A DNA stretch of 39,727 nucleotides from IMG/VR virus record IMGVR_UViG_2778261268_000004; one strand, given 5' to 3'. This document shows, in pieces, positions 3,266-39,196 of this stretch (positions within the stretch are counted from its first letter, which is position 1; each line of letters starts with the position of its first letter). Below the pieces are notes generated by a model. The model saw nothing but the letters and a program-made list of their open reading frames with translations. It did no database searches and was not told the DNA's origin. The position numbers were made by a program, and so were the translations under genes. The DNA comes from a virus. Its lineage: Duplodnaviria > Heunggongvirae > Uroviricota > Caudoviricetes.

Positions 3266-4147
3266 TTACATAGATGTTTCGTTTAATTCTTCCCGACGAA
3301 CGCTGTAAACGTCGGTGGCTTTTGCCAGCAGTTCGTCATCATCTGAAAGTTTTTGTGCAATGTATTTGTAAGCCTTATCCAGTTCGGAGACAGTGATGTA
3401 ATTCATCGCTGCGCTGGTAAAGGCCATCAGCATTTCTTCTGGATCACGGCTATCCGCTTTACGCGTTTGCTCATCAGGCTTTTTCGCTGGTTTAGCGTTG
3501 ATCAGACTGTTCATTCCCGCAGCAGTGGTCGTTTGCGGAGTAATGTCTCGCTCAACGCGCGGTGCCGTTTCCTGTAATTCGTCAGGGGTGTAAACACCGA
3601 GAAGTACATCAGGAGCGTGCAGGCGAGCCCATCGTTTCGTGCAAAGATAGGCAAGCTGCTGGCGCGGATCCTGTTCCCACAATGGAGAGTTACGCACTCC
3701 GGCTTGCGCCATACTGATGGTAAGCTCACGGGGTTCTGCTTCTCCTTTAAGAACTGCTGACACAGTTACCGTCAGATTCGGTGATTTATCTGTTTTGCCG
3801 TTAACATTCGACCAGTCACCGCTCCAGCGATAATTCAGGCGTGTCGCTAGCAGGCTGGAAGAGGATACGACCGCGTTTACCAACTGTGCTTCGTAGCCTA
3901 ACGTTCCGTTTACCACATGCGTTTTCTGCGCCACGGCGAAAGGATTCATTCCCCACTGTGCCGCCTGCATGGTCACCGCCAGACAATCGGCAGGTTCGCC
4001 TTTAAGATGTTTCGGTACAGTCGCTTTGCTTTGTGACATCAACTCCGCGAAACGCACCAGTTGATTCATGCCCTCCGGGCTGAAGATTGCCGCAGCAGTA
4101 CCTACAGTTGCGCCTGGTTGTGATGTGATTGCGATATCATTGCTCAT
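3266..4147 (-). CDS. Single-strand annealing protein, Red-beta/Bet-like
   Basis: C-terminal LCTKRWARLHAPDVLLGVYTPDE...ERDITP resembles lambda Bet; paired with an upstream exonuclease. Confidence 0.8.
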   Translation of the reverse strand: MSNDIAITSQPGATVGTAAAIFSPEGMNQLVRFAELMSQSKATVPKHLKGEPADCLAVTMQAAQWGMNPFAVAQKTHVVNGTLGYEAQLVNAVVSSSSLLATRLNYRWSGDWSNVNGKTDKSPNLTVTVSAVLKGEAEPRELTISMAQAGVRNSPLWEQDPRQQLAYLCTKRWARLHAPDVLLGVYTPDELQETAPRVERDITPQTTTAAGMNSLINAKPAKKPDEQTRKADSRDPEEMLMAFTSAAMNYITVSELDKAYKYIAQKLSDDDELLAKATDVYSVRREELNETSM

Positions 4148-4965
4148 ACGTACATATCCTGTTTACGTGCCCAGTCAGGGCGTTTAATAATTTCCACTCC
4201 GCCCCACTCATCGTTGATGCGGCATTCGTGATAGGTATTCAGATCCCGGTGGAACAGAGCGTGCCCGGCATCGACATCCGGCGCATCCAGCTCGAACACG
4301 CGTACCGGATACCGACCACAATCAATGCTTTCGCTCACGGCAAGAAAGAAAAAACCATGCGGCTGACCAGTAACCCTCATTGCGCCTTCGCGGTACATTG
4401 CGTCCTGCACGTGGTAGCGGAATTCCTCGATGTGGCGTGCAAAACGGTCCATATCTGCAACCTTTTTCACGTCGACGATCACGTTGTGCTCGTTCAGCCA
4501 TTTGTCTGGACGAATTCGGCACAACTCACCCGTATCTTCATCGTTCCAGTACATTGATGCTTCGCAGTAACCAGGTGCTTCCAACATCCAGCGTGCCGCC
4601 GGGTGAGCCATTGCGCTAGCACGCATCAGCTCCAGTTTTCGCCACTGCTCTGCATCAAGTACCGAAATCCCCATATCCGCTACATCACGAATAAATGCCT
4701 CTTCGTCAGCTTTACCTTGTTTTGTCCGACGATCGAATTTCGGTGAAACGATGAAGCGTTTGTCAAACTCTCCAGGTTCCAGAAGCAGACAGTGCAGAGC
4801 AGTACCCATGTCCAGTGCAGACTTCTTCTCTTCGTCTTCCGGAGCAGCCTTCACCCATTTCAGAAGGGCAGGGTTCTTAGCCACCATATCTAGCTGCGAC
4901 TTACTCACGCCGTCACCGGCGTGGTAGTCCTCGTTGCTGATATCGAAATAAATTCCCGGATTCAT
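4144..4965 (-). CDS. PD-(D/E)XK 5'-3' exonuclease (RecE/exonuclease VIII-like)
   Basis: N-terminal GIYFDISNEDYH and D...E.K (DVKKV) nuclease signature; translationally coupled to the Bet-like gene. Confidence 0.75.
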   Translation of the reverse strand: MNPGIYFDISNEDYHAGDGVSKSQLDMVAKNPALLKWVKAAPEDEEKKSALDMGTALHCLLLEPGEFDKRFIVSPKFDRRTKQGKADEEAFIRDVADMGISVLDAEQWRKLELMRASAMAHPAARWMLEAPGYCEASMYWNDEDTGELCRIRPDKWLNEHNVIVDVKKVADMDRFARHIEEFRYHVQDAMYREGAMRVTGQPHGFFFLAVSESIDCGRYPVRVFELDAPDVDAGHALFHRDLNTYHECRINDEWGGVEIIKRPDWARKQDMYV

Positions 4966-32525: not shown

Positions 32526-33236
32526 TCAGAAGAACCCTGCCTTGTCGTTGATGTACTCCGCGTGCGTCTGGATATCACGCAGGCATTTGCTCACACCGAC
32601 GATGTAGCAGAACATGGTGGTCAGTTCCGCCGCCGCGCCCGATACGTCGTGCCCGTCTTCCTGTAACTGGTTTAGCAGATTCATCAGCAGTGAGCTCTCC
32701 GTCAGGCCGAGAACACCAGACGGCGAATGAATCAGGCTACGGTAGCCTGGCTTCAGTGGGGCACTGTAGGTTTTGTTCTCTATCTTCATTGCCTGCATCA
32801 CTGCTGATGCTGTGGCGTTGGCTACCTGGTCGGCAACCATCTTTATGCGTTCTTCCTGCGGGAGCGAGTTTTTAATGTAACTTCCGGTGCGGCGGATCTG
32901 AGGAAGAACCTCACCTGTAACCCATTTACGAAAGCGGTAGGGGATAGTGCCTGGTGTCACCGCATCGCGGCAGCGGAGGATCAGTGTGTAGAGGCCTGAC
33001 TCGGAGATGATGTTGATCTCTTTTACTCGGCTATCAAAAATTGCACGATGTTCATGCCCTATGTTGAACATAGACCTTTCATCATCATCCAGTTTTTCAA
33101 GTGATTGGGTGACGTTTTGGATACGCAGCGCACTACAAACGTCTTGGGCTACAAACCATGGTTGGCCATCGATAATGATGGAACGGATAGGGTTAACAGA
33201 TTCAAATTTGAAGATGGCAGTTTGAGCATTAGCCAT
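32526..33236 (-). CDS. Bro-N domain antirepressor-like protein
   Basis: N-terminal FKFESVNPIRSIIIDGQPWFVAQDVCSAL...ESGLYTLILR Bro-N pattern; GGAGAT RBS. Confidence 0.75.
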   Translation of the reverse strand: MANAQTAIFKFESVNPIRSIIIDGQPWFVAQDVCSALRIQNVTQSLEKLDDDERSMFNIGHEHRAIFDSRVKEINIISESGLYTLILRCRDAVTPGTIPYRFRKWVTGEVLPQIRRTGSYIKNSLPQEERIKMVADQVANATASAVMQAMKIENKTYSAPLKPGYRSLIHSPSGVLGLTESSLLMNLLNQLQEDGHDVSGAAAELTTMFCYIVGVSKCLRDIQTHAEYINDKAGFF

Positions 33237-33253
33237 GGTGGTTATCTCCACTT

Positions 33254-33268
33254 AGTGATTTTAATCAC
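33254..33268. promoter_or_regulatory. Palindrome GTGATT-TTA-ATCAC immediately upstream of the Bro-N gene RBS
   Basis: Inverted repeat located -15 to -35 from ATG 33236 on the minus strand. Confidence 0.35.
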
Positions 33269-33391
33269 CACCGCAACGCCAATTACTGGTGGTGAACTGG
33301 ACAAGGTTGGCGTACCGGCCTAAGTGGTACCGGCGTCCTTTCGGACCCCTGCCCAGCCCACCATAATTCGGATATGGCTGTGCTTAACGCA

Positions 33392-33414
33392 TAAAAAAAC
33401 CACGTCTGGCGTGG
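33392..33414 (-). terminator. Rho-independent terminator inside the antirepressor intergenic region
   Basis: CCACG-ccaga-CGTGG followed by TTTTTTT on the minus strand. Confidence 0.65.
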
Positions 33415-33505
33415 TATGCGCCACTTAGTAACTCGGGACGCCAATCCCGGCACTGGATTTTGCCAGTGCCCGATTACTATGGCACAAGAGGAGTGCGATG
33501 TAAAT

Positions 33506-33520
33506 TTACCGCAAAGGTAA
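33506..33520. promoter_or_regulatory. Operator-like palindrome TTACC-gcaaa-GGTAA
   Basis: Perfect half-sites in the antirepressor intergenic region. Confidence 0.45.
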
Positions 33521-33551
33521 ATATAAGCACTCATCTTGGTAATTTCAAATC

Positions 33552-33809
33552 TTATCTGGTTTGTTTTCGTAATTGTTCGGCACAATAGTCGAGATGTGTT
33601 TGCAGATCCCGCATAGACATCTGTGAGCTGGTGACGTAGTTAATCAGTGCAGTCAGTTCGGCAAGTGGGCCATCGACATTAAATCCATCCTTATCGAGAT
33701 CCCGGAGTAATTTCATCAAGTGCGATCCCTCCACCAGTGATCTGACGCCTCCCGGCGTGTGAATCCTTTCGGTAAATCCGTCTTCCAGTGGATAGTGATA
33801 CTGCTGCAT
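33552..33809 (-). CDS. Small protein paralogous to the C-terminal domain of the Bro-N protein
   Basis: RSLVEGSHLMKLLRDLDKDGFNVDGPLAELTALINYVTSSQMSMRDLQTHLDYC aligns with the C-terminus of the 32526-33236 product; GGAGAAG RBS. Confidence 0.55.
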   Translation of the reverse strand: MQQYHYPLEDGFTERIHTPGGVRSLVEGSHLMKLLRDLDKDGFNVDGPLAELTALINYVTSSQMSMRDLQTHLDYCAEQLRKQTR

Positions 33810-33885
33810 CTTATCTTCTCCATGCAATAACTGTATATTTATACAGTATCAAATAATTTGTTTGCTATCCAGCACGTTTTGTAAA

Positions 33886-33900
33886 TTACCCGAAAGGTAA
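33886..33900. promoter_or_regulatory. Operator-like palindrome TTACC-cgaaa-GGTAA
   Basis: Perfect half-sites in the divergent region between the antirepressor-like gene and the tailspike; ATGTGGTT at 33933-33940 and GGTAAT at 33946-33951. Confidence 0.5.
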
Positions 33901-34004
33901 TATCTATTCGTATTTACAGTCTTTCTATCCATATGTGGTTTTTCAGGTAATAGAATAACCAGATATGCGGCGCAACGGGTGCTGCGACTATCTGGAGATT
34001 TAAC

Positions 34005-36296
34005 ATGACGGTCTCAACCGAAGTTGACCACAACGAATACACAGGCAATGGCGTTACGACATCGTTTCCGTATACCTTCCGCATTTTCAAAAAATCCGAC
34101 CTGGTTGTTCAGGTGGTTGACCTTGATGAAAATATCGCTGTGCTGGCTCTTGATACTGATTACACTGTCACTGGGGCTGGTGGATACAACGGTGGCAATG
34201 TAATTTTGTCGAAGGCATTGGCCAGCGGTCATCATATTTCTATATCTCGAGAGCTACCAGTTACGCAGGAAACCGATCTGCGCAATCAAGGTAAGTTCTT
34301 TGCTGAAGTGCATGAGGATGCTTTTGATAAGCTCACTATGCTTATACAGCGGGCATATAGCGTTTTTCGCTTAGCTCTGCGTAAACCATCAAGCATTGCG
34401 AACTGGTACGACGCGCTGAACAACTGCATCCGCAATTTGCGCGATCCCTGCAACCCGCAGGATGCCGCCACCAAAAATTATGTCGATACGCTCGCAAACA
34501 GCAACTTAATCCGCACGCTGCGAGTTCCAGAAGTTATTATATCCTTGCCTGATGCTGAAACCAGAGCTAATAAGATGGTTGCATTTGATAGTATCGGCAA
34601 TCCTTTAGTGGTTTTGCCTCCTTCAGGTTCTGCTTCTGATGTTCTTATTCAGTTGGCTGCCTCAGATGGAGCAAAATTATCGTTAAGTCAAGTAGCCACC
34701 GCATATGGCCTTGATTTCTCGTTAGGCGGTGTATGGCGGGAGGGGGCGTTATCTAATGTTGATAACTGGTGGTGGTATAATAATAAAATCTACACTGGTG
34801 GTAGTGGCACTCTTCCGTCATCTCCTGCTTTGCCATGGTACGAAGTGACGGTAGCAGATTATATTTCTGTTGCTCAATTTTTCCCCATTACTGGTGATCC
34901 AGCGGCAGATAACTCAGCTAGCTTTAATGCTGCTGCAGCAGTTGCTTTATCGGCAGGAAAGAGGCTGTTTGTCCCTGCAGGAACTTACTATGTTAAGTCA
35001 CCAGTTGATTTAACAATAGGCACTGTTGACCTATTCGGGGATGGCGTTGAGAAGTCATTCATTATTGCGGGGAGTGGGTTCACTGGAGAGGCAGTTGTCA
35101 ACATGTACTACGAAACTGACTCTATAAGACGTAGCACATCTATCTATCACGTTACAGTTGATGGGAACAACATCGCCAACTATCCTTGCCGAATTCAATA
35201 TGTTCACCTAGGAAGAACCCATAATTGTCGTTTCATCAATGGCGCGGTGGCGAACTTATATACTATAAACGACTGGCTTAATACCTATGATTGCTGTTCT
35301 TTTGTTCCTGCGCCAAATCGCGGAGTTCACCTTGCTGGGGCTAACAACCGCGTAACGTTCAATAACTGTGGATTTGCATCAAATAAGGTCGGTGAATATG
35401 CCTTTTATGCTTCTGGTACTTCCCCTATTGAAGGTTTAAGCTTAATTGGATGTGACCTTGAGTTCGGCATTGGGCATGGCATGTACTTAAATACCCGAGT
35501 GACCAATATTGTTGGCGGGTACTATGGCGAAGCGATACAAGGCGATATTTTTACGGTTCCAGATGGAGTAGTAAAAATAAGCGGTGTAAATGCTTTTGTA
35601 GGATATTACAATGAGGGAGGAAGGTTTGTTGTTCTTGACAATGATGCTGTAGTTAAGGTTGATAGTTGCTGGATTGCAGATCAGGGCAACTTTAAACTTT
35701 CATTACTTGCATCAAGCGCTAACAACATGGCTCATGCTGTATTTACTAAATGTTATATTGGTGCAACTGTGTCTGGCCCACAAGTTATGGAAGGAGATTG
35801 TTTAGGCAAGATCAATATGAGGACGTTTGCAGAAAGCAGGGCAATCCTTTATACAATGAACAATACTGGTAATACAGTAACCAGAAGCAGATACAACTCA
35901 ATAGGAGCAAAAATAACCATTAATACCGTAACGAGCCCTAGTTCTAACAAGCTATCACTTAATACTAAGATAAAAGACAGAGGGTGGAAGGTTAACGACC
36001 GGGTGTACTTAATTGTTACTTATGAGAGTAATGTTGATATAAATATTTATTTAAGCAGTTCGATATATGCTGCATCGGATGCAACGCTATTTGGAACTTT
36101 ACCATCAACAAATGGTTCTTTATCTACGTGTTATATTGCTAATAATATTATTCCGGAAAATACATCTGAGATATTCGAGTTTTATGTAAATGGCGCTGGT
36201 GTTGGCGATTACTTTGCTATTCAGGATGTTACTCTTACAGACAGGTCATTCACTTTCAGTGGAACAACTATGACCACTTTTGCTAAGGCTGAATAA
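34005..36296 (+). CDS. Tail fibre/tailspike: T7 gp17-like N-terminal anchor plus beta-helix-like C-terminal domain (probable depolymerase)
   Basis: N-terminal pattern ending NKNYVDTL as in T7-type fibres; C-terminal repetitive Asn/Gly-rich region suggestive of a right-handed beta-helix. Confidence 0.85.
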   Translation: MTVSTEVDHNEYTGNGVTTSFPYTFRIFKKSDLVVQVVDLDENIAVLALDTDYTVTGAGGYNGGNVILSKALASGHHISISRELPVTQETDLRNQGKFFAEVHEDAFDKLTMLIQRAYSVFRLALRKPSSIANWYDALNNCIRNLRDPCNPQDAATKNYVDTLANSNLIRTLRVPEVIISLPDAETRANKMVAFDSIGNPLVVLPPSGSASDVLIQLAASDGAKLSLSQVATAYGLDFSLGGVWREGALSNVDNWWWYNNKIYTGGSGTLPSSPALPWYEVTVADYISVAQFFPITGDPAADNSASFNAAAAVALSAGKRLFVPAGTYYVKSPVDLTIGTVDLFGDGVEKSFIIAGSGFTGEAVVNMYYETDSIRRSTSIYHVTVDGNNIANYPCRIQYVHLGRTHNCRFINGAVANLYTINDWLNTYDCCSFVPAPNRGVHLAGANNRVTFNNCGFASNKVGEYAFYASGTSPIEGLSLIGCDLEFGIGHGMYLNTRVTNIVGGYYGEAIQGDIFTVPDGVVKISGVNAFVGYYNEGGRFVVLDNDAVVKVDSCWIADQGNFKLSLLASSANNMAHAVFTKCYIGATVSGPQVMEGDCLGKINMRTFAESRAILYTMNNTGNTVTRSRYNSIGAKITINTVTSPSSNKLSLNTKIKDRGWKVNDRVYLIVTYESNVDINIYLSSSIYAASDATLFGTLPSTNGSLSTCYIANNIIPENTSEIFEFYVNGAGVGDYFAIQDVTLTDRSFTFSGTTMTTFAKAE

Positions 36297-36302
36297 TTAA
36301 CA

Positions 36303-36328
36303 GAAAAGGTGGATCACTCCACCTTTTC
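36303..36328. terminator. Bidirectional terminator after the tailspike
   Basis: AAAAGGTGGA-tcac-TCCACCTTTT, A-run and T-run on both sides. Confidence 0.75.
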
Positions 36329-36475
36329 ATCAAGCCAGTCCGCCCACCACTGCATCATTTCTCTGCGCTTATCGAGATACTGAGCATGGTTGTAAATCCC
36401 GCGCATAGATCCTCCGTTAGCATGTGTCAGTTGCACCGCATTGACATCCTCCACGCCCTGAAGTACTGGGTTTTA
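36314..36475 (-). pseudogene. 3'-terminal remnant of a second P4-type integrase gene
   Basis: Open frame PVLQGVEDVNAVQLTHANGGSMRGIYNHAQYLDKRREMMQWWADWLDEKVE aligns with the C-terminus of the intact integrase (KALAHEQKGVRAVYNKAEYARQRAYMLQQWADMID) but is divergent; no upstream gene body. Confidence 0.6.
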
Positions 36476-36530
36476 CGGCGCACTGGATAAATTTACGATC
36501 TCATCCGTAAAATACAAAAAAACCACTTTA

Positions 36531-36580
36531 TTACCTTTATGGTGATTTATGTAAGGTGTTTTATTTAACCATATATGGTT
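36531..36580. promoter_or_regulatory. Operator-like imperfect palindrome TTACC-tttat-GGTGA plus palindrome AACCATATATGGTT upstream of the lysis cassette
   Basis: Same half-site variant as 7303-7317; AACCATATATGGTT at 36567-36580. Confidence 0.4.
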
Positions 36581-36641
36581 TATTATGTATGATGAACTCA
36601 CCAACTAAGGGGGACTTTATGCATATTAAACGGTGGTCACT

Positions 36642-37046
36642 ATGTCAACCACGCTGACAACGGACTCACTTAATCAGGGGCTTAGCCTTGGCGCGCTGGC
36701 TTCAGTTGTTGTCGGTGTCCCTCCCGAGGTGGCGTTAGGTGCGCTGGCCGGTGCGGTAATTTTTGTTACCTCGGCTGTAGAGTATCCGATCAAGCGTCGG
36801 TTATTACTTGCGTTTCTCAGCTACCTATGCGGAGTTCTCTTCTATAAAGCAACAGCAACACTGCTTATCGGAATAGCGAGCTGGATACCGAAAATCACAC
36901 CTGACTCATTCGAGAATGGGGTTGCGTTCTCTGCCGGGGCATTCGTGTCAGCTATCGTCGCTGTCCGCATTGGCATATGGCTGTATCACCGTTCTGAAAA
37001 TCCGCGCGACTTGATCCCGGGGAGAAAAGACGATGGTAACGCATGA
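36642..37046 (+). CDS. Membrane protein, putative holin/antiholin
   Basis: Several hydrophobic segments; GGTGG RBS; first gene of the lysis cassette. Confidence 0.5.
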   Translation: MSTTLTTDSLNQGLSLGALASVVVGVPPEVALGALAGAVIFVTSAVEYPIKRRLLLAFLSYLCGVLFYKATATLLIGIASWIPKITPDSFENGVAFSAGAFVSAIVAVRIGIWLYHRSENPRDLIPGRKDDGNA

Positions 37047-37341
37047 GCTTTTTTTACTTATCACCAATGCAGTTATTTGTACTGGCATAGCAATTCGCGT
37101 TGTTACATTCCAGCGTAACGGATCTCAACACCGAAGATGGGGTGGGTGGATTGCTTATTTCCTGATTGTTGCTGCTGCCAGTATTCCAGTTCGTGTCGCT
37201 TATGCAATCTGGTTACATACGCCAATGGCTGTGGATTTATCTGAGGTCATTATCAACGCTGTCATGCTTGCTGCGGTTATTAAAACTCGCGGTAACGTCG
37301 TTCAGATTTTCAAAATAACGAGGTCTAAACATGGAGATTAA
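37033..37341 (+). CDS. Putative holin (3 predicted TM segments)
   Basis: 102-aa hydrophobic protein directly upstream of the endolysin. Confidence 0.5.
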
Positions 37342-37960
37342 ACAATTCCAGCGAGCTGCTGGTATCAGCGAGGCGCTGGCCGCACGCTGGTTCTTGCATA
37401 TAACTTCTGCGATGAAAGAGTTTGGTATCAGTAAACCCGAAGATCAGGCAATGTTTATTGCTCAGGTCGGGCATGAGTCTGGTGGCCTCACCCGGTTACA
37501 GGAAAATTTCAATTACAGCGTCACCGGACTGGCTAACTTTGTTCGGGCTGGGCGTCTCACCCAGGGACAGGCTAATGCACTGGGGCGCCGTGCTGGTGAA
37601 CCACCATTGCCACTTGAGCGCCAGCGCGCGATCGCAAATCTGGTATACAGCAAACGCATGGGTAACAATGCTCCCGGCGATGGCTGGAATTACCGTGGGC
37701 GCGGGCTTATCCAGATTACCGGCTTGAATAACTATCGTGACTGCGGAAACGGTCTGAAAGTTGACCTGCTGGAGAATCCTGAACTGCTGGCACAGGACGA
37801 ATACGCGGCTCGTAGCGCGGCCTGGTTCTTCTCCAGTAAAGGCTGCATGAAGTATACCGGAGATATTGTACGTGTAACTCTGATTATCAATGGTGGCAGG
37901 AACGGCATCGACGACCGGCGCGCGCGGTACATTACTGCCAGTAAGGTGCTGGTGGTATGA
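37331..37960 (+). CDS. Endolysin, glycoside hydrolase family 19-like
   Basis: AQVGHESGG ... GRGLIQITG ... NY motif series characteristic of GH19-type phage lysins. Confidence 0.85.
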
Positions 37961-38439
37961 TCTGGGCATTCGTCAAAGCGTACTGGAAACAGTTACTTAT
38001 CGTGGCGATGCTTGCTGCTCTGGTAATCGGCGGCAGGGTTGCCTGGAATGTACACGGCAGCCACCAGTACGATGCCGGGTATGCGCAGGCAAAGGCAGAT
38101 CAGAAACAGGCTGATGATAAAGCTCGTCAGCATGACGAACAGGAAAAAGCGACCAATGAACGTGAAGCGCAGCAGAGGATCGACCAGGCGCGCAATGATG
38201 CTCTTGATGCTGCCGCTCGCGCTGGCCGGTTGCAGCAACAGCTCGTTGCCATCCGTGAGCAGCTCAGGCAGTATAACGCCACTATCGGCACTGGGGCGTC
38301 AGCCGCAGACACCGGAGTTTTGCTTGCCGACGTGCTCAGCAAATCTCTCGAGCGAAACCGACAACTGGCAGAGTACGCTGACCGGGCCGCCGAAGCCGGA
38401 CGAGTCTGTGAAAAGCAGTACGATTCGCTGACACGGTGA
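37957..38439 (+). CDS. i-spanin (Rz-like)
   Basis: N-terminal TM ([14 protein letters not shown]) followed by charged coiled-coil; after the endolysin. Confidence 0.65.
38156..38431 (+). CDS. o-spanin (Rz1-like lipoprotein) embedded in +1 frame of the i-spanin gene
   Basis: Lipobox LALAGC after a basic n-region, Pro-rich mature part; AGGAAAAAG RBS. Confidence 0.55.
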   Translation: MNVKRSRGSTRRAMMLLMLPLALAGCSNSSLPSVSSSGSITPLSALGRQPQTPEFCLPTCSANLSSETDNWQSTLTGPPKPDESVKSSTIR

Positions 38440-38592
38440 CATGGCATTTTTCATGGCACTGATTTCCGGTGACGGTATATAAAACGGTACGGTGAAAATC
38501 AGATTGCATAAAATTGTTACCAGTCAATTGGTTATGTGTGTCGTAAATAATTGAGTGGGAATGATTTGACCCTGCACTATGAATGAACAAAA

Positions 38593-38618
38593 CCCTCTGT
38601 TACTACAGAGGGTTTTTT
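38593..38618. terminator. Bidirectional terminator at the probable prophage right boundary
   Basis: CCCTCTG-ttacta-CAGAGGG followed by TTTTTT. Confidence 0.75.
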
Positions 38619-38656
38619 ATCTTCAAGAATTATAGGATTGAAGTTACTAACATCGA

Positions 38657-39196
38657 TTAATTAAACCAGCTGTCCGATTTGTTCTCTTCTGCTTTGCCCA
38701 CGCTTTTCATCAGATCGCGACCGCCTTCAGTCATATTTCTGTTGGCGTCAGCTTCAGATTGCACCACATCGGTTTGCGCAGCTTTGTGCTTCAGTTCCTG
38801 ATCGATAAATTCGTTTTCTCGCTTAACGCGGGCTTCTTCTTTCGCCAGCGCCAGTTTTTGTTTCTGAATCTCTAAGCTGCGTAGCTCATCTTCATAACTT
38901 TGATCGCGTTTTTTGTCCGCAGAGGCTTCGGCGTCCAGTTTATCCTGACGAGCTTTCTTATTTGCCGCTGCCGTTGCCGCTCTTTTGTTAGCGGCGGCCT
39001 GGGCATTTGCGCGACGTTGCTTCTCTTGCTGGATTTCCCTGTTGCGCTCCGCGACCCATTCGTCATGCTGCCTTTGCTCTTCATTTTTACCTTGCTGTTC
39101 CGCTTCTGCGACAGCAGAGAGTTGATCCTGCAATGATGAGGCGATAGCCGGATAGCTTAAGGAGGCTAAGATGGCGCAAAGAAAAACTTTCTTCAT
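38657..39196 (-). CDS. Periplasmic coiled-coil protein with signal peptide (probably host or cargo)
   Basis: MKKVFLCAILASLSYPAIASS signal; Lys/Glu/Ala-rich body. Confidence 0.55.
   Translation of the reverse strand: MKKVFLCAILASLSYPAIASSLQDQLSAVAEAEQQGKNEEQRQHDEWVAERNREIQQEKQRRANAQAAANKRAATAAANKKARQDKLDAEASADKKRDQSYEDELRSLEIQKQKLALAKEEARVKRENEFIDQELKHKAAQTDVVQSEADANRNMTEGGRDLMKSVGKAEENKSDSWFN

Follow-up and report, generated by a model that had tools for sequence, protein, structure and literature searches.

Why does the 3' end of an integrase gene, with none of the gene body before it, lie between the tailspike gene and the lysis genes of a phage that has an intact integrase gene of another kind? 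This question is raised by a 39,727-nucleotide (nt) stretch of viral DNA (IMG/VR record IMGVR_UViG_2778261268_000004; hereafter, the window means this whole stretch), which by its predicted gene content is a Uetakevirus (epsilon15-like) prophage of Escherichia coli inserted at guaA. An earlier note, made from the letters alone, had proposed that the fragment might be the scar of an integrative element once inserted at this site, a recombination junction between two modules, or a marker of the element boundary. Our analysis favors the second proposal, with the fragment forming the right end of a block imported from a P22-like prophage. More specifically, we consider it about 80% probable that the integrase stub is a hitchhiker that entered together with a P22-like receptor-binding domain (RBD) of the tailspike and was later used as a homology arm.

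The minus strand of the window is open from 36314 to 36472 (52 codons plus a stop; translation NPVLQGVEDVNAVQLTHANGGSMRGIYNHAQYLDKRREMMQWWADWLDEKVE*), and an in-frame stop codon at 36473-36475 closes the frame upstream. A BLASTP comparison with the full-length IntS of E. coli ET245 gave 39 identities over 44 residues (89%; IntS residues 342-385; E = 3e-27), with 38 of the last 40 residues (95%) being identical. At the DNA level, the stub lies within a 98.3% nt match to ET245, matches the 3' end of HK620 int at 95.4%, and shares 92-95% identity with int of IME10, CUS-3, Sf6, and several Stx phages. The protein match and the DNA identities of 95-98% confirm that a minus-strand remnant of an integrase 3' end is present, as the earlier note had stated. 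IntS is the argW-specific P4-like tyrosine integrase of HK620, Sf6, CUS-3, and the CPS-53 prophage of E. coli K-12.

The remnant is shorter than was first thought. Nucleotide homology to intS stops at 36436, or at 36440 at most, and the integrase-derived part comprises 41 codons (stop included) out of 386 in IntS. The other 12 codons (36437-36472) are not of integrase origin, and most of them fall inside an insertion sequence (IS) scar that happens to keep the frame open. The integrase tail described before is thus real, its extent of about 50 codons was overstated, and the interval proposed for it (36314-36475) retains its intS assignment up to 36436 and loses it for the 12 mostly scar-derived codons and the upstream stop. 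The weak in-frame resemblance of 36437-36475 to integrase was also considered as a possible second allele, and this candidate was rejected, as 36441-36491 matches IS ends at 88-94% in unrelated flanks.

With 39% identity over 38 amino acids, the stub is no duplicate of the resident integrase gene (1-1257), from which full-length IntS also differs widely (29% identity). When the whole window was searched with IntS by tblastn, only the stub (IntS residues 342-385) and the distant resident integrase were recovered. Neither this search nor the alignment revealed any intS gene body upstream of the stub in any frame, which excludes a sequencing frameshift within a longer gene. Hence, the absence of a gene body and the difference from the resident integrase were both read correctly before, and neither of the two outcomes held to count against the claim, namely a frame lacking integrase similarity and a longer gene broken by a frameshift, was found.

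In full-length IntS, Pfam recognizes the Arm-DNA-bind_3, Phage_int_M, and Phage_integrase domains, with the catalytic domain at residues 199-365, an architecture for which the former label of P4-type integrase is acceptable. The 52-residue frame itself has no Pfam match, as expected for so short a piece. The stub holds IntS from residue ~345 onward, without the arm-binding domain, the core-binding domain, and most of the catalytic domain. It retains the C-terminal tail, the last conserved His, and the catalytic Tyr (...LTHANGGSMRGIY...), the two residues being those that we assume from the His-to-Tyr spacing known from lambda Int, and it lacks four of the six residues of the complete catalytic set (Arg, Lys, His, Arg, His/Trp, Tyr). 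The attP elements of HK620 lie at or upstream of position 829 of its record, outside the retained 123 nt, and no tRNA-Arg (argW) target occurs near the stub, where the lysis cassette follows instead. In the sister genomes, PGAP labels this stretch "integrase, incomplete, missing N-terminus." By these comparisons, the stub is a non-functional pseudogene fragment of IntS and not a functional member of the family. It probably encodes nothing useful, with the terminator as its sole functional element.

A 46-codon frame beginning with GTG (36314-36454) might nevertheless be expressed as a small protein or a regulatory RNA, for instance from the promoter of a former conversion gene, given that the divergent intergenic region driving minus-strand cargo in relatives has been retained and that the terminator would end such a transcript. 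We consider this highly improbable, since its first codons lie in IS-scar sequence, direct reading shows no convincing ribosome-binding site upstream of the GTG, and there is no minus-strand promoter-like site in 36150-36700. Moreover, the product would be a 40-residue tail deprived of all DNA-binding domains and of most catalytic residues (four of six).

The source of the stub was sought among 5,426 complete E. coli genomes, the set used for all genome counts below. A search with 34900-36700 found that ET245, VG48B2, P13-6, and UMNF18 match 34900-36436 at 98.7-99.0%, in a region annotated as a phage tailspike protein followed by intS. The similarity extends further to the left, as 34663-36436 aligns in one continuous block (98.3%) with the argW P22-like prophages of ET245 and VG48B2, and matches over 34663-36374 or up to 36436 in ET245, VG48B2, and ST12468 reach 98.3-98.5%. 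Lederbergvirus cassettes were recognized by P22-type neighbors (Arc, Ant, gp16, SieA); the ET245 and VG48B2 prophages carry genes for Arc, Ant, and the DNA-transfer protein. In both of them, the tailspike gene and a full-length intS converge with a 17-nt spacer between them, and tRNA-Arg and yfdC come next. Only in the P22-like setting is intS complete and adjacent to its att site, and the stub therefore originated from a P22-like phage. Moreover, since the homology is continuous over the RBD, the spacer, the terminator, and int, the stub arrived together with the RBD. The alignments establish a founding transfer that ran from a P22-like phage to a Uetakevirus, with the stub as passenger DNA.

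Such a passenger is also seen elsewhere. In the P22-like prophage inserted at dacD in ST12468, the window-type tailspike precedes an intS stub of 62 nt that is independent of the one in the window and has its inner break at another point (locus L006, 7398-7475), which suggests that tailspike cassettes often drag along a piece of the neighboring intS. In that prophage, the stub is followed by a HumD fragment. As a separate observation, the donor-type prophage of ET245 is defective (locus L004, 3065-3762): ninX and a DNA-transfer gene, both truncated, are joined there by an IS1, with deletion of the lysis and head genes. Since this prophage has nonetheless kept a donor-type tailspike, defective prophages can remain reservoirs of tailspike cassettes.

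The left end of the imported block lies within the tailspike gene. The anchor encoded there is 73% identical in amino acid sequence to residues 1-232 of epsilon15 gp20, has a weak match to the N-terminal part of Pfam Phage_T7_tail, is 99.5% identical at the nt level to the sister prophage of VG48B2, and shows no similarity to P22-like anchors. Beyond the anchor, the interior of the RBD is 99% identical to the tailspikes of the argW P22-like prophages ET245, VG48B2, P13-6, and UMNF18. BLASTP of the whole window tailspike against that of ET245 gave 93% identity over 579 aligned amino acids, a figure that includes the unrelated anchor end, and the two are near-identical from the seam on. At this seam, residue ~220 of the window protein meets residue ~121 of the P22-like protein, within a DxLxxLA..G..L linker motif common to both genera, and the stretch just beyond it (34663-34819) is 87-90% shared even between different P22-like tailspikes. 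These comparisons identify the predicted window tailspike as a chimera of an epsilon15-type anchor and a P22-like RBD.

On the other side of the RBD, a scan detected the terminator hairpin on the minus strand (36303-36328). Its DNA folds at -11.3 and -11.5 kcal/mol on the two strands (z = -8.2 and -7.6), and it is identical in ET245, as is the 17-nt stop-to-stop spacing between the tailspike gene and intS. The predicted terminator is common to the convergent tailspike and intS genes, was imported with the block, and probably ends the tailspike transcript. An Rfam scan of 36200-36700 found no known RNA family, only a meaningless sub-threshold microRNA match on this hairpin.

The continuity of the block bears on whether the stub decayed in place, that is, whether another integrative element or prophage inserted between the tailspike and lysis genes and then lost all but the last 41 integrase codons. 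Such a decayed element can indeed look like a truncated integrase beside an IS scar. However, the P22-like homology runs without interruption from the tailspike RBD through spacer and terminator into int, and the 17-nt spacing is unchanged; the stub has no attP element, and the site has no tRNA-Arg target; and no further fragments of IntS, tnpA, or tnpB occur in the window. In addition, none of the complete genomes has a relative with a native (non-P22-like) RBD plus a longer intS or a whole element at this place. We therefore regard decay in place as very unlikely. The stub came as passenger DNA without the attP elements annotated in HK620, and the scar proposal, in the sense of an element that once integrated here, is wrong.

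The right-hand joint is marked by the IS scar, which lies exactly between the end of the intS homology and DNA of Uetakevirus type. A search with 36437-36640 gave matches in 2,210 E. coli records, in up to 9 places per genome and also on plasmids, and nearly all of them land on 36441-36491. Their nature is evident from locus L008, in which a complete IS200/IS605-family element interrupts a TetR gene and carries tnpA (Pfam Y1_Tnp) and a divergent tnpB/insQ (OrfB_IS605). The tnpB-side end of this element reads TTGACATCCTCCACGCCCTGAAGGACGTGG… and its tnpA-side end reads …CCCCGCCCTGAAGGACGGGGTTTTACGGCGCACTGGATAAA; the window scar reads TTGACATCCTCCACGCCCTGAAGTACTGGGTTTTACGGCGCACTGGATAAA, the tnpB-side end being joined to the tnpA-side end through the common hairpin loop. 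The 51-nt unit thus combines the terminal ~25 nt from both ends of a complete tnpA+tnpB copy. In the full copy, the stems CCCCG…CGGGG and CCACG…CGTGG enclose the common loop; in the window, stem substitutions have left a degenerate hairpin that folds no better than shuffled sequence. Because there is no significant fold, we do not claim an active IS end for it. Furthermore, tblastn with TnpA and TnpB found no remnant of either gene in the window. By these features, the unit is best classed as a scar and not as an active element. Our literature search retrieved no prior description of this IS, and it is named here to the family level only.

Solo copies of the 51-nt unit also occur in unrelated flanks, on an O145:H28 chromosome and on an 8.9-kb plasmid. 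This unannotated unit, present in about 2,200 E. coli records, looks like a product of recombination between end hairpins or a minimal miniature element.

Given the position of the scar at the joint, an IS copy probably took part in founding the right-hand joint. The routes could include IS-IS recombination, an IS-associated deletion, or later insertion of a mini-element at the joint. Neither a P22-like donor with an IS-interrupted intS nor a Uetakevirus with an IS in the tailspike-lysis slot was present in the genome set.

The subsequent use of the stub is suggested by prophages with the same arrangement (hereafter, hybrids). The sister Uetakevirus prophage of VG48B2 matches the window at 99.96% in 36313-38700 and at 99.5% in 33106-34819, and between those flanks it has a different 3.2-kb cassette with two open reading frames (ORFs). 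P22-like/IntS prophages of other strains match this cassette at 99%, and its homology starts and ends at the same outer points as that of the window block. The interiors of the hybrids are 99-100% identical to P22-like cassettes, whereas the edges have diverged: each hybrid differs from every P22-like prophage by 10-12 mismatches in 34667-34709 on the left and by 4-7 mismatches in 36398-36427 on the right. In both of these edges, the hybrids are identical to one another. The clearest case is the ETEC1716 hybrid, which has no mismatch to the argW P22-like prophage of VG48B2 over 1,624 nt (34710-36333), all mismatches being confined to the edges.

The same division runs through the stub. Its outer part is identical to modern intS alleles, and its inner part (36398-36436) constitutes the diverged edge; between the window and ET245, there are 0 mismatches in 36297-36400 and 5 in 36401-36427. 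The inner 51 nt have a 100% match only in three hybrid prophages, with the best intact intS reaching 90.2%.

Based on these patterns, we postulate the following as the simplest history. A block reaching from the anchor/RBD seam to 123 nt inside intS would have replaced the native RBD and the O-antigen-conversion genes, and this one founding import would have fixed the outer joints and the IS scar. At least one later double crossover, and probably several, would then have swapped the interior by homology inside the arms, i.e., the stub on the right (~124 nt) and the conserved post-anchor stretch on the left (~157 nt). In this way, the hybrid lineage may exchange whole RBD cassettes with co-resident P22-like prophages. 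Two suitable partners do meet in VG48B2, where one cell harbors both the two-ORF hybrid and, at argW, a P22-like prophage with the window-type tailspike (loci L010 and L014); as their tailspikes are unlike, two podovirus prophages in one host differ in RBD. The prophage's own pair of RecT and nuclease might plausibly catalyze the swaps, and Red/RecET-type proteins recombine through homologies of this length. The mosaic patterns thus point to the stub as most likely the right-hand homology arm for repeated tailspike swaps.

The shared edges also speak to a simpler view, in which the stub is passive junk, the by-product of a single illegitimate import with no part in later exchanges, and the sister cassettes stem from independent imports or from exchanges that did not involve the stub. 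This view shares the hitchhiker origin with our explanation, and it fits the rarity of the arrangement and the fact that recombination has not been directly observed. However, independent imports would not surround two interiors, each of which is ~99-100% identical to a different P22-like donor, with one and the same set of outer junctions, IS scar, and edge single-nucleotide polymorphisms (SNPs). We therefore find it unlikely, and prefer the stub as a homology arm.

Several points count against that preference. The arrangement is rare (3 of the 5,426 genomes), and in an exact search the 25-mer spanning the junction between intS and the IS scar was absent from viral, metagenome, and one-genome-per-species collections; any swap "system" is therefore confined to one small lineage. 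The arms are deduced from mosaic patterns in four prophages, and no recombination was directly observed. In addition, if the recipient of the ETEC1716 type was VG48B2-like and the donor carried the intS allele of the VG48B2 argW prophage, the right crossover would be limited to just ~21 nt (36313-36333), a limit that a donor with another intS allele would relax. Later swaps could have run from a hybrid to a P22-like prophage or in reverse. Finally, the IS scar could postdate the formation of the joint or mark an IS-flanked deletion.

We also entertain, as a rather doubtful extension, the idea that this lineage maintains the stub and the post-anchor stretch as a docking cassette with which its RecT/nuclease pair captures RBD cassettes, two-gene ones too, from any co-resident IntS-type P22-like prophage. 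If true, a pseudogene would have become a device for shuffling host range across genera, at the cost of the serotype-conversion genes.

The surroundings of the block are those of an epsilon15-like phage. In addition to the epsilon15-type anchor, the window shows the Uetakevirus order of tailspike, slot, holin/holin/GH19 endolysin/Rz, attP, and int, which is the native order of epsilon15 and BUCT554. Between tailspike and lysis cassette, these two phages and other E. coli relatives have a slot with genes for O-antigen conversion on the minus strand (a polymerase with its inhibitor, gtrABC, or an acyltransferase). The window slot (36297-36632) has no conversion genes and holds the int stub and the IS scar; the prophage therefore probably leaves the host O-antigen unmodified, as far as gene content can tell. 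Thus, as to whether the lysis cassette directly adjoins the tailspike in relatives, the order is the same, but conversion genes stand between the two. To the right of the scar, the native intergenic region has 79% nt identity to that of Enterobacter phage BUCT554 from 36501, 4 nt upstream of the gtrA start codon of that phage, and its homology to epsilon15 begins at 36569. It contains no promoter-like sites stronger than the weak plus-strand matches at 36484-36513 and 36565-36593.

This native context decides against the stub as the true prophage end, with the lysis cassette belonging to an adjacent second element. Prophage borders often hold integrase ends, as such a reading would require. 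Nevertheless, the lysis cassette is 81.7% identical at the nt level to epsilon15 gp23-Rz with the gene order unchanged, and the search for att-like direct repeats, proposed in the earlier note, found a 17-bp core repeat at 38550-38566, beside yfgI. The core exactly matches the guaA stop region that adjoins int in the sister strain ETEC1716; the prophages of sister strains are flanked by guaA and yfgI, and the host genes yfgI and yfgH lie beyond the attR core. This places the element boundary not at the stub but ~2.1 kb farther right, and we see practically no chance that the stub marks it. Just past the att core, a hairpin (AACCCTCTGT…ACAGAGGGTTTTT) is found at both prophage ends (window 38591-38617; locus L012, 4414-4440) with differing loop bases; its two occurrences are presumably the guaA terminator and a phage-borne copy of it.

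The features discussed are collected in Table 1. The RecT and nuclease genes listed there are annotated likewise in ETEC1716. In the ETEC1716 annotation, the minus-strand genes beside int (1260-2858) specify a Ser/Thr phosphatase, an MT-A70-family methyltransferase, and a PerC-family transcriptional regulator; PerC-like regulators on prophages of pig enterotoxigenic E. coli (ETEC) may be of interest for virulence regulation. Near the tailspike gene, the ~300 nt that separate a BRO-N gene from the next ORF on the minus strand (33252-33551) are free of annotated genes in the sister genomes.

Table 1. Positions of the predicted features in the window and of IS matches in other loci.
Feature	Position	Strand	Remarks
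RecT recombinase and PDDEXK-like nuclease, prophage-encoded	3266-4965	minus	Pfam RecT, E = 2e-31; DUF3799 PDDEXK-like, E = 6e-22
Tailspike codons 1-219, Uetakevirus (epsilon15-type) particle-binding anchor, native	34005-34662	plus	gp20 similarity
Putative left homology arm	34663-34819	plus	First ~52 codons past the anchor/RBD seam (…LAASDGAKLSLSQVATAYGLDF…)
Left outer edge common to all hybrids	34663-34709	plus	47 nt of the left arm
Exchangeable RBD interior (pectate-lyase-like), P22-like origin	34820-36296	plus	Pfam Pect-lyase_RHGA_epim
Terminator hairpin, bidirectional intrinsic, predicted	36303-36328		11-bp stem; AAAA/TTTT flanks; overlaps the int stop codon
intS 3' pseudogene stub	36314-36436	minus	Last 40 codons and stop of an IntS-type tyrosine recombinase; putative right homology arm
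Fused-end scar of an IS200/IS605-family insertion sequence	36441-36491		51 nt; matches both ends of the full copy in L008
Scar and its matches	Window 36441-36491; L007 2501-2551; plasmid L009 2501-2551; L008 790-815 and 2501-2542		
Native Uetakevirus intergenic region	36501-36632		In relatives, between the conversion genes and the lysis cassette
Native lysis cassette	36633-38439	plus	Phage_holin_8-like protein, 3TM holin, GH19 endolysin, Rz-like DUF2514 protein (Pfam)
attR core ATTGAGTGGGAATGATT	38550-38566		Exact 17-bp repeat of the guaA 3' end including the stop codon; right prophage boundary

Tailspike RBDs decide which O-antigen a podovirus attacks, and their exchange across genera is well known; the DNA-level route of such an exchange is seldom visible. 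Here, the stub establishes that the founding transfer had a P22-like phage as its source and an epsilon15-like phage as its recipient, and the joints are pinned to the nucleotide, at the anchor/RBD linker motif and at the IS200/IS605 scar. The contrast between edge and interior SNPs suggests that an accidental pseudogene can turn into portable homology for later host-range swaps. These data also explain the "partial integrase" label of PGAP, which could mislead prophage-boundary callers, and they suggest natural arms for engineering tailspike swaps. While the partial integrase had already been flagged by PGAP, what is new here is where the stub came from, the polarity that it lends to the transfer, the presence of an IS scar at the joint, and the mosaic of edges versus interiors. 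We view the locus as a small, lineage-specific case of ordinary phage mosaicism that can be traced in unusual detail and that requires no new mechanism.

A literature search for an int stub beside a Uetakevirus tailspike found no prior description, and the locus is best placed by comparison with systems that share its parts. With the intS of P22-like phages, the stub shares the stop codon, the terminator hairpin, and the 17-nt spacing to the convergent tailspike gene; it differs in lying inside a phage of another genus, with a different integrase and guaA as its att site. The slot itself resembles that of epsilon15, phiV10, and BUCT554 in its position, its convergent orientation to the tailspike, the flanking intergenic region, and the lysis cassette, but has no conversion gene. 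Compared with IS200/IS605 elements and their miniature derivatives, the 51-nt unit reproduces both ends, but it has no transposase and its hairpin is degenerate.

For lambdoid mosaicism, the HK620 genome paper and subsequent studies reportedly proposed that recombination takes place at short "linker" or boundary sequences that are conserved. The window is similar in that short shared stretches flanking a module permit homologous replacement between otherwise unrelated genomes. In contrast to such linkers, the one on the right appears to be an accidental pseudogene fragment left by an earlier import, and its homology is historical and not ancestral.

The boundary/linker idea is also brought up in the discussion of the study closest to our case, which has already described that E. 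coli prophages of the genera Lederbergvirus and Uetakevirus exchange RBDs behind genus-specific anchors (Virol J 2023, PMC10408124). The anchor lengths given there, 205 amino acids for phiV10 and 124 for HK620, fit the seam in the window (~220 on the Uetakevirus side and ~121 on the P22-like side). That study reports conserved DNA motifs flanking the RBD, one of them doubling as a terminator, for lytic genera only, states that they are absent from Uetakevirus and Lederbergvirus prophages, and makes no mention of integrase (PMC10408124). The window differs from the exchanges described there in its downstream flank, which is a fragment of the donor integrase gene and, as such, also fixes the original direction of transfer.

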